A stretch of DNA of 41,439 nucleotides from a virus (lineage: Duplodnaviria > Heunggongvirae > Uroviricota > Caudoviricetes). Positions 10 to 23,344 of this stretch are shown in pieces (the first letter of the stretch is position 1; each line of letters opens with the position of its first letter). The notes below the pieces were generated by a model. The model had not been told where the DNA came from. It saw only the letters and a program-made list of their open reading frames with translations, and did no database searches. Both the position numbers and the translations under genes were made by a program. Location of the stretch: positions 1-41,439 of the IMG/VR virus record IMGVR_UViG_3300044630_004416, one strand, 5' to 3'.

Positions 10-82
10 TGGAAGATAGCGGACTCGAACCGCTGACATCCTGCTTGCAAAGCAGGCGCTCTACCAACTGAGCTAATCCCCC
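10..82 (-). tRNA. tRNA-Ala (anticodon TGC)
   Basis: Reverse complement folds as a cloverleaf: GGGGGAT/ATCTTCC acceptor with G3:U70, D arm GCTC/GAGC, anticodon arm CCTGC-TTTGCAA-GCAGG, T loop TTCGAGT. No encoded CCA. Confidence 0.96.
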
Positions 83-241
83 AGATGGATTAGGTGTGAA
101 ACCAGGGACCTAATCTCTATCCGTATGCTGACTTTGCAGTTCAACGTCAAACTAGTAAACTAAACAACGGCGATTGTAGTCTATGTTGAATAATATACTA
201 GTGGTATTTACCGTCAGAAGGAAAGTTCTGTTAACGGTAAG
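83..241 (-). ncRNA. Candidate structured RNA in the tRNA-Pro/tRNA-Ala spacer
   Basis: Hairpins TTACCGT..ACGGTAA (inner CAGAA/TTCTG), ACTAGTA..TACTAGT and GATTAGG..CCTAATC. No ORF. Confidence 0.35.
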
Positions 242-315
242 TCGGAATGATAGGATTTGAACCTACGGCATCTCGCTCCCAAAGCGAGTGCTCTACCAAA
301 CTGAGCTACATTCCG
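242..315 (-). tRNA. tRNA-Pro (TGG)
   Basis: CGGAATG/CATTCCG acceptor, anticodon arm CTCGC-TTTGGGA-GCGAG, T loop TTCAAAT. Confidence 0.96.
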
Positions 316-391
316 TGGTAGTCTCACCGAGGATTGAACTCGGATTTTTACCTTGAAAGGGTAACGTCCTGACCAGTTAGACGATGAGACC
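316..391 (-). tRNA. tRNA-Glu (TTC), CCA encoded
   Basis: GGTCTCA/TGAGACT acceptor followed by ACCA, anticodon arm TTACC-CTTTCAA-GGTAA. Abuts tRNA-Pro. Confidence 0.95.
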
Positions 392-725
392 TTGATGAGA
401 GAATAAGATGCATGTTTAATCTTGATTTAAAATCAAGCGGCTTCATTATTCTCCCCAATTCCAGTTATCGCTGAGACATCATCTACACACTGGCAAACTC
501 TGATGATGAATGTTTTGGGTGAATGGTGGGAATCTGTCATACCCACAATCAGGAAGGTTACACTGACAACCGTATTTCCTAATACCTAGATTCTTCTTGG
601 TCGGAAGTTCTATACCTTTGATTTCTCAACGATACAGCGGGCACCACCCCTAACCTATTACATTATCCCGTGAGTAACCACAAGGATTGTTCTGTCACAT
701 TCTTTGGAGAACCGTCGCTCTCCAA
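392..725 (-). ncRNA. Candidate structured ncRNA in the tRNA-Ile/tRNA-Glu spacer
   Basis: About 330 nt with no ORF and at least 7 hairpins, including CTGTATC-GTTGA-GAAA-TCAA-A-GGTATAG (GNRA loop, G-U wobbles). Confidence 0.45.
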
Positions 726-797
726 TAGGACTGCAGGGAATTGAACCCCGTTCACACCGTTATAAGCAGTGGGCCTTAACCAATAGGCGACAGTCCC
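726..797 (-). tRNA. tRNA-Ile (TAT, unusual UAU anticodon)
   Basis: GGGACTG/CAGTCCT acceptor, anticodon arm CACTG-CTTATAA-CGGTG, T loop TTCAATT. Confidence 0.9.
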
Positions 798-805
798 AGA
801 CTAAA

Positions 806-1057
806 TTAACGAACTTCGTAATCTAGTCTTCTTATTCGTCTCTTTGGAGTCATTGGTTCCATAATCTTTTGTTTCTCTTTTGGTTTAGTGAATCCACTCA
901 CCATTTCAACACGGCTCATGTCTTCAGCAATTATAACAGGTAATCCGTTGTTGTCAAGTCTTATGTAGGCTCTATTAGGACACTTACATGATTGACCACG
1001 GTTTGGTTGAGTTACTTGCAAATCAGTGTTGCAATCTTTGCATCTAATTTTGTACAT
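806..1057 (-). CDS. Hypothetical protein with putative Zn-binding CxxC...CxC motif
   Basis: 83-aa ORF with CKDC and CKCPN motifs, lying between tRNA genes. Confidence 0.75.
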   Translation of the reverse strand: MYKIRCKDCNTDLQVTQPNRGQSCKCPNRAYIRLDNNGLPVIIAEDMSRVEMVSGFTKPKEKQKIMEPMTPKRRIRRLDYEVR

Positions 1058-1087
1058 TGTTTCATACCTTAAAATATTCAGTTGTCA

Positions 1088-1161
1088 CGACTCAGGAGGG
1101 ACTTGAACCCCCGACCAACTGCTTAGAAGGCAGATGCTCTATCCAGCTGAGCTACTGAGTC
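1088..1161 (-). tRNA. tRNA-Arg (TCT)
   Basis: GACTCAG/CTGAGTC acceptor, anticodon loop CTTCTAA, T loop TTCAAGT. Confidence 0.96.
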
Positions 1162-1173
1162 ATTTGTGTAGTA

Positions 1174-1202
1174 ATTGTACCAGACTAATCTTGCTTTGTC
1201 AA
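1174..1202 (-). promoter_or_regulatory. sigma70-type promoter for tRNA-Arg and downstream genes
   Basis: TTGACA-17 bp-TACAAT on the minus strand, within the last codons of the upstream ORF. Confidence 0.75.
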
Positions 1203-1583
1203 GGGGCAGTCTGGGACCCATGGAGCACAGAGTCGGATTTCTCCTCCCAGTGCTCGACACTCATCAGTATAACACACAGAAGTGTCCACTGGTTTCTCTG
1301 AGTATCGGGGCGGTGGAATTCTAACAGTTCCATCGTCTCCTGTCAAGCGTTCATAATCTGAAATTGCTTTGTCAACATCTCTCTTAACACGACGGTCAAG
1401 AAGTGCTGGGTCCTTTATTATATAGTCGTTTAATTGACTATTTGGAAAATACTTTCTTTGAATTTCGTCAATCAGGTCATACCAATGTATCTCATCAATC
1501 CCTGTACATTTTGTAAGTAATCCTACTGATGAGGTAAGTATAACTCCTATGATTGCAAAATTTATAACTTGTTTCTTATTCAT
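1185..1583 (-). CDS. Hypothetical membrane-anchored protein, 132 aa (start MNKKQVINF)
   Basis: N-terminal hydrophobic helix and four C-terminal Cys. The track's upstream extension overlaps the RlpA-like gene, so ATG 1583 is preferred. Confidence 0.75.
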   Translation of the reverse strand: MNKKQVINFAIIGVILTSSVGLLTKCTGIDEIHWYDLIDEIQRKYFPNSQLNDYIIKDPALLDRRVKRDVDKAISDYERLTGDDGTVRIPPPRYSEKPVDTSVCYTDECRALGGEIRLCAPWVPDCPLTKQD

Positions 1584-1620
1584 GGGAGGGGAGAACCTCG
1601 TCTCCCCATTATTTAGTCTA

Positions 1621-1983
1621 TCACACTCTAGTGTAACAGATATTTGCCACTCCCTGTCCTGGATGTGCAATTGAAGAGAATGCCCCATAAGACAGGTCAA
1701 GGTCACGTCCTCCGACATATGGACCTCTATCATTCACTCGCACAATAACTGATTTACCATTTGATTGATTAGTCACCCGCAACTTTGTACCAAATGGAAG
1801 CCATTTATGTGCTACCGATTTACCATATGCATTGTATCTTTCACCGTTAGCGGTGGTTCTACCGTGATATCCATCACCAATACCATAATGTGAAGCCATT
1901 GAACATCCGCTGGCTGCTTCAGCTTTTTGGGGCGTAAATCCAAGAAGTGTTGAAGCAATAAGAAGTGTTGAAATAAAACGCAT
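1621..1983 (-). CDS. RlpA-like (double-psi beta-barrel) lytic transglycosylase family protein with signal peptide
   Basis: Motifs TANGERYN, AHKWLPFGT, VRVNDRGPY and RDLDLS. Signal peptide ends in an AEA site. Confidence 0.9.
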   Translation of the reverse strand: MRFISTLLIASTLLGFTPQKAEAASGCSMASHYGIGDGYHGRTTANGERYNAYGKSVAHKWLPFGTKLRVTNQSNGKSVIVRVNDRGPYVGGRDLDLSYGAFSSIAHPGQGVANICYTRV

Positions 1984-2104
1984 TTAAATTAATAGAACTC
2001 TACATCCCAATAGAAGGGGGGTACACCACACCTCTCGGTGGGCACCTTCCTGGGCACAAAATGACAACAACTCAATCGCTTATAATATAAATTGGTGTTG
2101 TCAA

Positions 2105-2187
2105 TGGGCAGGGCTGGATTTGAACCAGCGTTGGACAGAGCCGCCTGATTTACAGTCAGGTTCCTTAAACCACTCGGACACCTACCC
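2105..2187 (-). tRNA. tRNA-Tyr (GTA), long variable arm
   Basis: GGGTAGG/CCTGCCC acceptor, anticodon arm CTGA-CTGTAAA-TCAG, extended variable arm, T loop TTCAAAT. Confidence 0.95.
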
Positions 2188-22574: not shown

Positions 22575-22901
22575 ATGCTCTCTACTCAGTATCGCCTGAG
22601 ACTTCAGGCTATTTGTGAAAAAATTGTAAACGGAGAATCTGTAGAGTTATCCGATATGATATGGGCAGAGAAACTCGCCGCAGCAAACAGAACCGCTGGC
22701 ACAATGCTTAGACAAGCAAGAAGAAAATCAGAAAATCCTAATATGCAAGAAGGAGATTTAGATGATTTTCTAAATCAATTAGATATTGGTGGACTTGGAA
22801 ATGAAAGATATGGTATAGGTGGATTCAATACAGTTGATGATATTGTAGACTTTTTCAGTGAAGGTAGAGATAAGCCAGATGACTGGAGACAAAGAGATTA
22901 A
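22575..22901 (+). CDS. Conserved cyanophage hypothetical protein
   Basis: 108-aa ORF MLSTQYRLRLQAICEKI...RD; ATAAATA at 22545-22551. Confidence 0.8.
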   Translation: MLSTQYRLRLQAICEKIVNGESVELSDMIWAEKLAAANRTAGTMLRQARRKSENPNMQEGDLDDFLNQLDIGGLGNERYGIGGFNTVDDIVDFFSEGRDKPDDWRQRD

Positions 22902-22912
22902 ATAAATAGATA

Positions 22913-22966
22913 TACGTTCATTCGCTATTTTCAAATAGCGAACGGAAGTAAGCCGACTCGGAACGG
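22913..22966 (+). promoter_or_regulatory. Glutamine riboswitch-like aptamer 1 (glnA RNA motif)
   Basis: CGTTCA-[P2 TTCGCTATTT/AAATAGCGAA]-CGGAAGTAAG-CCGACTCGG-AACG matches the recalled glnA motif core. Confidence 0.75.
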
Positions 22967-22967
22967 A

Positions 22968-23138
22968 ACGTTCATCTATGGAAGCACTTCTTTTAACGTG
23001 TTTACAGTCACAACTCCTGTTTAGGAGGATTGATATGGCTGATTTGACTCCAAAACAAAAGAATGATTTGATATGGGAAATCAAACAACTCACACCTAAA
23101 AAGTGTACCCTAGACGCAAAAGCCGACTGAAGGAACGC
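22968..23138 (+). promoter_or_regulatory. Glutamine riboswitch-like aptamer 2 with an ORF-sized P2 loop
   Basis: CGTTCA-TCTA...TAGA-CGCAAAAG-CCGACT-GAAGGAACGC. Confidence 0.6.
22978..23130 (+). CDS. 50-aa small ORF embedded in aptamer 2 (MEALLLTCLQSQLL...DAKAD)
   Basis: Translated by hand, open from ATG 22978 to TGA 23128-23130. Below the ORF-track cutoff. Confidence 0.65.
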   Translation: MEALLLTCLQSQLLFRRIDMADLTPKQKNDLIWEIKQLTPKKCTLDAKAD

Positions 23139-23169
23139 TCTTTAACCTCAACCATTAAGGAGAACCCTA

Positions 23170-23316
23170 ATGTCACAAGCAACTTATCGTGGTGTAAAAT
23201 ACGACACAGAAATTAAAAAAGAAGAATTTGCAAGTAACTGGTTACTGTTGATTCGCAAACAAATTGAAAGAGAACAAAGACTACATGATGCACAAATTGC
23301 TATGGCAATGAAATAA
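23170..23316 (+). CDS. DUF4278-like small protein, 48 aa (MSQATYRGVKYDT...)
   Basis: SD AAGGAG upstream, YRG motif, downstream of glnA-type aptamers. Not in the ORF track. Confidence 0.8.
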   Translation: MSQATYRGVKYDTEIKKEEFASNWLLLIRKQIEREQRLHDAQIAMAMK

Positions 23317-23344
23317 AAAAAGAGGGGGCATATGCCCCCTTTTT
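23315..23344. terminator. Bidirectional intrinsic terminator
   Basis: A-tract, AGGGGGCA-TA-TGCCCCCT, T-tract, between convergent genes. Confidence 0.85.

Follow-up and report, generated by a model that had tools for sequence, protein, structure and literature searches.

In the glutamine-I riboswitch class, as described for the gifB/IF17 leader of Synechocystis (PMC6212724; PMC6698751), a P1 helix of CGUUC and GAACG and a P2 of variable length are combined with a base-triple G in the ACG strand, a linchpin pair, a loop-E motif (AGUA opposite GAA) and a P3 helix, and the aptamer is followed by an anti-SD segment 3' of P1 and by a DUF4278-type gene. In the structure of Ren et al. (2015), as far as it is summarized in PMC6698751, the linchpin joins, over a long range, the bases that come next after ACG and GGAACG. 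The cyanophage locus described here has all of these parts, and it differs from the described class in that a single P3 serves two cores, of which the second has its parts in a circularly permuted order (GGAACG, loop, CGUUCA) and no loop E, a translated gene sits in one or both P2 loops, and the element is phage-borne. Doublets of glnA-type cores that lie a few bases apart before one gene, often with the same sequences as those studied here, were treated by Sherlock et al. (2022) as two independent riboswitches in a row (PMC9481103), whereas the covariation reported below argues for dependent, nested cores. ORFs in stems are not mentioned in that review of tandem riboswitches, and phages are not mentioned by Klähn et al. 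2018 (PMC6212724). In the available parts of the respective sources, the paper on S-CREM1 makes no mention of ORFs inside the aptamer, and the glnA alignment file of Weinberg 2010 contains P-SSM2 and several ocean-metagenome rows, with the split core and the ORF in the unaligned 3' flank, and does not contain P-SSM4. No published description of a nested, gene-holding layout was found in the literature covered here. In its architecture, the element represents a new form of the glutamine-I riboswitch, with nested cores, a common P3 and genes in its stems.

Two further groups of RNAs are useful for comparison. The tandem glycine riboswitch consists of two cores of one class with conserved inter-aptamer contacts and a single expression platform, and the present element resembles it in having two same-class cores whose mutual contacts serve one platform. 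The glycine aptamers are arranged next to each other, with tertiary contacts holding them together, and, to our knowledge, they have no common helix, no nesting and no coding sequence. Group I introns carry homing-endonuclease ORFs in peripheral loops, and trp and erm are controlled by leader-peptide attenuators; the locus is similar to these in that an ORF lies in a loop closed by a functional helix, so that ribosome movement is set against RNA folding. Unlike in these systems, the host RNA would here be a metabolite-sensing aptamer with glutamine as its putative ligand, the start and stop codons are part of that aptamer, and the ORF encodes a conserved small protein that is neither an endonuclease nor a throw-away leader.

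A glutamine-I doublet in the only plus-strand unit

The window, by which we mean the whole stretch of 41,439 nucleotides that was analysed (positions 1 to 41,439 of IMG/VR record IMGVR_UViG_3300044630_004416), derives from a T4-like cyanomyovirus, with a tRNA cluster, a manA RNA, hsp20, regA and clamp-loader genes. The manA RNA (109 bits, 516-724, minus strand) lies within a cluster of six tRNA genes (10-2187, minus strand), and in P-SSM4 a manA RNA is found approximately 90 nt upstream of the riboswitch with its nested ORFs. Nearly all long ORFs of the window are on the minus strand, and the sole plus-strand unit (22575-23316) comprises, from 5' to 3', a 108-aa gene, the RNA element with a 50-codon ORF inside it, a 48-aa gene and a two-way terminator. 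A reading made earlier from the sequence alone (hereafter the sequence-only reading) had singled out the riboswitch region as the only plus-strand unit; among long ORFs this holds, yet the unit begins earlier, with the 108-aa gene of family phrog_507 (22575-22901, plus strand), which ends 13 nt before the riboswitch and has a homologue at the equivalent place in DSL-LC02. The terminator (23317-23344), a G+C-rich hairpin flanked by T runs at either end, is common to the unit and a converging regA-like gene. A promoter scan returned no sigma-70-like site directly upstream of 22915, so the riboswitch unit may be read through from 22575.

A search of metatranscriptome runs returned three only, with 4% of the sampled words. 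The contigs recovered are relatives that cover the conserved cores, some with the ORF and others with a short hairpin instead; since such RNA-library contigs show neither start, strand nor level, they are no evidence for expression of the unit. In freshwater and aquaculture metatranscriptome contigs, close relatives have a short hairpin where the window has the ORF, with the joints at 22976 and 23113 (for example with the loop GGGAAACC). ORF-holding and hairpin forms stand side by side in those contigs and thus co-occur in the same waters.

The element begins with CGTTCA (22915-22920), of which CGUUC(1) (22915-22919) forms the 5' strand of the outer P1 and, in the nested fold discussed below, would pair with 23133-23137. 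The P2a hairpin (22921-22942, strands 22921-29 and 22934-42, loop UUCA), which covaries in relatives, has 9 bp; the first aptamer had been described as compact with a 10-bp P2, and it is compact with one pair fewer. Core 1 (within 22943-22965) contains CGG with the linchpin base G22945, the AGUA half of loop E (22947-50), the 5' strand of P3, CGACU (22954-58), and GAACG(1) (22961-65), and runs through the GGAACG at 22960-65. A GAA linker, in which G22966 pairs with C23117 as a linchpin, precedes CGUUC(2) (22966-22973 for both), and CGUUC(2) (22969-73) can pair with 22961-65 to form the inner P1' hairpin. In the second aptamer, CGTTCA at 22969 leads into TCTA, a segment in overlap with the ATG at 22978, and 132 nt later come TAGA (23111-14) and a variant core that extends through GGAACG (23132-37). 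The 5' strand of P2b (22975-22989) starts with UCUA (22975-78) and continues via GG and GCACUU into codons 2-4 of the nested 50-codon gene (22978-23130, plus strand), and its 3' strand (AAGUGU, CC and UAGA; 23101-23114) faces it across the ORF. Core 2 (within 23114-23137) holds ACGC with the linchpin base C23117, the P3 3' strand AGCCG (23121-25), the stop codon (23128-30), which overlaps the GAA half of loop E (23129-31), and GAACG(2) (23133-37). The extra GAACG copies noticed in the sequence-only reading at 22940, 22961, 22966 and 23133 are present. The expression platform (23138-23162), with the anti-SD CUCUUUAA (23138-45) predicted to pair with the RBS-holding UUAAGGAG (23155-62), is followed by the 48-aa gene (23170-23316, plus strand). 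In S-CREM1 and S-PM2 (L003 778-799, L009), the P2b hairpin is nearly identical in sequence to the P2a hairpin of the window (22921-22942, UUCGCUAUU...AAUAGCGAA). This suggests, by comparison of sequences, that units may have been swapped between the P2a and P2b positions via recombination of the repeated cores.

The assignment to a glnA-type doublet, as originally proposed, was supported. In an E-value scan of the region, the Rfam model Glutamine (RF01739) matched the first core at 22913-22969 with 32.4 bits (E 3e-5; cut-off 35), and in a default Rfam scan of the window with the gathering score of 35 Glutamine is absent, because the first core lies slightly below that score. Homologues score 33.5-35.6 bits against RF01739, with the DSL-LC02 copy at 35.6. 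RF01739 is a linear model by which the split second core cannot be scored; however, nine compact copies that carry the exact second core of the window reach 35.1-39.4 bits, above the cut-off, and the split core thus appears to be a genuine family sequence that is interrupted in its P2 loop. The further features of the class are also found: the P1 strands, two CGUUC and two GAACG, are invariant across all copies, and a P2 helix follows CGUUCA immediately, with both P2a and P2b covarying, the latter across 130-190 nt of coding sequence. The Watson-Crick linchpin, which joins the bases that follow ACG and GGAACG, is consistently formed across cores only, and there is one loop-E motif (AGUA opposite GAA) per doublet, the inner core being without it. 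The glutamine-II class (Downstream-peptide motif, RF01704) was considered and rejected, as its model scores 13.5 bits (E 0.89; cut-off 33). In that class the 3' tail that follows GGAACG forms P2 in a pseudoknot, and when 124 tails among the matches listed were read by eye, none of the expected conserved pairs with the strand that follows ACGC were seen.

Fold of the paired cores

At least 120 loci in IMG/VR matched a sequence pattern of the second core, and removal of duplicates left, among the matches listed, 92 ORF-holding copies from cyanomyoviruses and 32 compact ones. The sequence-only reading had drawn two tandem aptamers, with CGTTCA at 22969 paired to GGAACG at 23133, and in its plain form this would mean that two self-contained aptamers (22915-22965 and 22969-23137) each bind glutamine, that the second merely has a long, ORF-holding P2 loop, and that the pair gives the downstream gene a steeper dose response. 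Such an arrangement has points in its favor, as the Rfam model aligns both units in linear order and a review from the Breaker laboratory counts 157 glutamine doublets as pseudo-cooperative tandems (PMC9481103). With nearest-neighbour energies, a constrained tandem fold is slightly more stable than a nested one (-54.5 against -51.4 kcal/mol), so that the energies do not favor nesting. The unconstrained minimum-free-energy structure (-58.5 kcal/mol) pairs unrelated segments and was set aside.

The comparison of copies does not agree with independent units. In all 124 copies among the matches listed, core 1 has AGUA always and RAA before GGAACG never, and core 2 shows the opposite, so either unit alone would possess only half of a loop-E motif. 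The cores are obligate pairs with a linker of 3-5 nt in 122/124 copies among the matches listed, which is too short for an expression platform between the units. Across the cores, the two linchpins are formed in 122/122 and 120/122 copies among the matches listed, whereas within the units they are formed in 95/122 and broken in both units of all 27 window-type copies (G.G and C.C); the cross-core linchpin moreover swaps from G:C to C:G between freshwater and marine clades, a change that may be one evolutionary event. For P3, mutual information singles out the core-1/core-2 positions 16:8 (U-A 98, A-U 18, U.G 2, G-C 1) and 13:11 (G-C 93, G.U 20, A-U 6), again among the matches listed, and these define a 5-bp inter-core helix. 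The intra-core P3 pairs as drawn by Rfam fail in about 19 of 119 copies among the matches listed and the inter-unit pair in none, and an A.C mismatch in P3 is present in 94 of the 119. When 22 compact doublets were aligned, the nested structure was 96.3% paired and 10 of its pairs had changes in both strands, while the tandem-specific pairs failed in nine of the 22, and RNAalifold, unaided, predicted the outer P1 and the inner hairpin from this set. Loop-E halves, linchpins and P3 are thus common to both units. Because the ACG strand of core 1 comes directly after P2a and CGUUC(1), the base that follows GAACG(2) is within its reach only when CGUUC(1) and GAACG(2) are paired; since the linchpin requires this pairing, the fold would be nested. 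Given that P1 is invariant and that the energies do not discriminate, the case for nesting rests on the linchpin, P3 and the split loop E. We consequently regard the plain tandem as quite improbable, and the best fold on comparative grounds appears to be one of interdependent, nested cores in which the ORF would be enclosed not by P2 alone but also by P3 and the outer P1.

We consider it rather probable that 22915-23162 acts as one sensor, with two nested glutamine-I cores and the P2b gene inside, for which glutamine binding and the direction of control are inferred. In this sensor, the outer aptamer would be built from P1 (22915-19/23133-37) and the P2a hairpin, and core-1 ACGG-AAGUA together with core-2 GAA-GGAACG-C would supply its loop E and its linchpin G22945:C23138. 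P3 (22954-58/23121-25) would have no terminal loop and would instead open into the second, circularly permuted core, which would consist of the P1' hairpin (22961-65/22969-73), the linchpin C23117:G22966 and P2b around the translated gene. The outer and inner aptamers would thus have P3 in common, and the stop codon of the gene would fall in the loop-E strand, 3 nt ahead of the outer P1.

The gene inside P2b

The separation of the P1/P2 strands of the second aptamer by an ORF, with a TCTA/TAGA stem, was part of the sequence-only reading, and covariation of that stem is found in homologous cyanophage loci. In the 92 distinct split copies among the matches listed, positions 1 and 2 of P2b are invariant, position 3 is U-A in 35, C-G in 48 and U.G in 9, with 0 mismatches, and positions 4 and 5 show compensatory changes with 1 and 3 mismatches, respectively. 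The mean contiguous stem in the same 92 copies among the matches listed is 6.4 bp as compared with 4.0 +/- 0.18 for permuted partners, and complementarity extends into the first and last codons of the ORF, with an ORF-end duplex energy of -15.5 kcal/mol as compared with -10.7 +/- 0.3 for permuted partners. The window has the weakest P2b of the set, with 4 contiguous bp that reach about 12 bp when extended (UCUA/UAGA, GG/CC and GCACUU/AAGUGU). In the extended P2b, Leu-rich N-terminal codons (CUN/UUR, 22978-22995) lie opposite Lys/Glu-rich C-terminal codons (AAR/GAR, 23095-23114), and the RNA helix may therefore set part of the composition of the protein.

The ORF itself was as the sequence-only reading had it: 50 codons, with the ATG in the 5' arm of P2, the TGA (23128-30) in the 3' half, within the core, and a C-terminal DAKAD that is encoded by the aptamer core. 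The frame from the ATG in P2 to the stop in the core is open in 91/92 split copies among the matches listed, against 1 and 0 for the other frames, and the start codon always lies 9-12 nt past CGUUCA inside the stem and the stop always inside the core in the copies among the matches listed. The layout of an ORF within the riboswitch is not due to chance. Purifying selection is evident from a median dN/dS of 0.20 in the middle of the ORF (362 pairs from 32 window-type sequences, 99.7% of them below 1) and from entropies of 0.86/0.46/1.25 at the three codon positions, and ten residues, both cysteines (Cys8 and Cys43) among them, are invariant in 29 sequences. AlphaFold2 predicts a helical hairpin (residues 2-20 and 25-38, pLDDT 80.6) with a disordered DAKAD tail. 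Based on these comparisons of sequences, the nested ORF is confirmed as a real gene.

Homologous families exist in marine phages (phrog_504 and phrog_6471), and by profile comparison the marine P2b family is related both to the window-type family and to the P2a-loop family, with 98% probability for each link, although the common DAKAD tail adds to the score of the former. No named family was found for the nested protein in Pfam or, for the window copy, in PHROGs, and the ESM Atlas gave no usable match. The hydrophobic N-terminus was also considered as a signal peptide or lipoprotein signal, and this reading was rejected by eye, as there is no basic n-region, no lipobox and only 7 residues before the Cys. 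The nested ORF also contains an in-frame ATG (23036), preceded at a distance of 7 nt by a strong AGGAGG (23023-28). A 31-aa product is possible from this ATG, and part of the nested protein may hence arise independently of P2b. The AGGAGG can form a small hairpin with CUCCU (23010-14), and the internal start is not kept in most relatives. The P2a loop holds a gene as well in many phages (L004 599-799, L007 310-513, L036, L043 and others); one P2a-loop family has 61-69 aa, ends in IGRK and has its stop inside core 1, another has a signal-peptide-like start (MTKALLLLAWVPLLS...), and all P2a-loop gene products have two conserved cysteines.

How much the gene matters to the RNA is a separate question, and two readings assign it a lesser part than we do. 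P2 could be a permissive insertion site, that is, a neutral but transcribed loop, with the riboswitch acting on untranslated mRNA for the downstream gene only and the nested gene expressed at a constitutively low level. This would agree with the variable length of P2 in the family model, with the presence of related protein families in either loop, and with the finding that P2a and P2b, each either compact or ORF-holding, occur in all four combinations (20, 68, about 21 and about 11 copies among the matches listed), which makes the ORF dispensable for RNA folding. A neutral passenger would, however, not be expected to keep its start in a fixed register 9-12 nt after CGUUCA in the stem and its stop always in the core, nor to have ends that are complementary beyond the conserved stem, and we therefore hold this reading to be unlikely. 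A still smaller role for the protein follows if the ORF is a regulatory leader only, similar to an attenuator, such that the act of translation would matter and the peptide itself would do nothing. The shortness of the ORF, its overlap with regulatory RNA at both ends and the dictation of its final five residues by the aptamer core would all suit a leader, but the dN/dS of 0.2 across the middle of the ORF, the invariance of two cysteines and several other residues, the confidently predicted helical hairpin and the homologous phage families do not, and we give this reading very little credence.

Proposed working, distribution and meaning

For the gifB leader, Klähn et al. proposed an anti-SD arrangement in which glutamine turns translation on (PMC6212724). 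In the window, an anti-SD/SD hairpin is predicted immediately 3' of the outer P1, and C23138, with which the anti-SD begins, is also the base that pairs with G22945 in the linchpin. By analogy with gifB, we infer that glutamine turns the 48-aa gene on. With glutamine bound, both cores would lock and C23138 would be pulled from the anti-SD helix, by which the RBS of the 48-aa gene would open and this gene would go up, while the start codon of the nested gene would be buried and that gene would go down. The nested start codon and the 20 nt that precede it lie inside P1'/P2b, beside the inner pocket, and glutamine should thus keep this start shut. A ribosome on the nested gene would in turn melt P2b, P3 and the outer P1; as it would open the helices of the sensor, translation and sensing may be mutually exclusive on one molecule. 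Such a ribosome would stop 3 nt before GGAACG(2), which would be near enough to disturb the anti-SD, and one finishing at 23128-30 could unmask the downstream RBS at low glutamine and so blur the ON switch. Taken as a whole, we tentatively propose a two-site glutamine sensor with opposite outputs, in which the nested gene or genes would be off when the IF17-like gene is on, translation would reset the sensor, and the two-cysteine helical products of the nested genes would, as matched partners of the DUF4278-type peptides, act on glutamine synthetase or nitrogen signalling of the infected host; we regard this complete scheme as possible, and as less probable than not.

The downstream gene was expected to be DUF4278-like. 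A DUF4278-type gene does follow, although the match of the window copy to the Pfam family (PF14105) is weak, at 13.2 bits (E 0.12; cut-off 25.3) and over residues 3-14 only, and the downstream proteins of relatives score 23.3-24.7 bits. The 48-aa protein keeps a single N-terminal YRG..Y repeat, with only about 13 DUF4278 residues, where the family has two repeats. It is a fusion, with residues 1-22 matching phrog_5049 (the DUF4278 YRG motif) and residues 23-45 matching phrog_545, a peptide that is a separate 28-aa ORF in relatives: DSL-LC02 and DSL-LC03 have a 45-52-aa DUF4278 gene with two YRG repeats and an overlapping 28-aa ORF (L001 1059-1300; L002 1408-1628). The same fusion as in the window is carried by S-CREM1. 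Here we speculate that the 48-aa protein might have a role in the control of glutamine synthetase, and it might, as the sequence-only reading supposed for a small phage protein, tune nitrogen assimilation in the host.

BLAST against phage genomes revealed the same layout in DSL-LC02, DSL-LC03, S-SRM01, P-SSM4, P-SSM2, P-SSM7, S-SSM7, P-RSM6, P-HM1 and P-HM2 and also in single-cell viral contigs; P-SSM4 has ORFs in both P2 loops, and S-CREM1 and S-PM2 have the same second core with a short hairpin instead of the ORF. Among 185,579 species genomes that were scanned, there were 4 matches, all on short contigs from metagenome-assembled or single-cell genomes and one of them also a viral record, and no version of the element on a host chromosome was seen in this set. 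This last one, a contig of 189,106 bp filed under a Prochlorococcus single-cell genome, carries the element and equals an IMG/VR viral record in length (L138 / L089), and it probably represents the genome of a phage that had infected the cell. Marine picocyanobacteria have the glutamine-II class only (PMC6212724). Given that the core is found only on phage-like contigs and that the marine hosts have glutamine-II only, the nested form looks phage-specific.

Riboswitch aptamers are usually taken to be compact, non-coding and self-contained, and the present form departs from all three, as its two cores lend each other conserved parts and need pairings more than 200 nt apart, and as real genes lie within its stems, so that start and stop codons are parts of the sensor itself. 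Such elements are overlooked or wrongly drawn by standard family scans, and tallies of 'tandem' glutamine riboswitches may cover a different machine than assumed. The layout is a natural case of competition between the ribosome and ligand-dependent RNA folding, and it points to small conserved phage proteins that are tied to the nitrogen status of the host.
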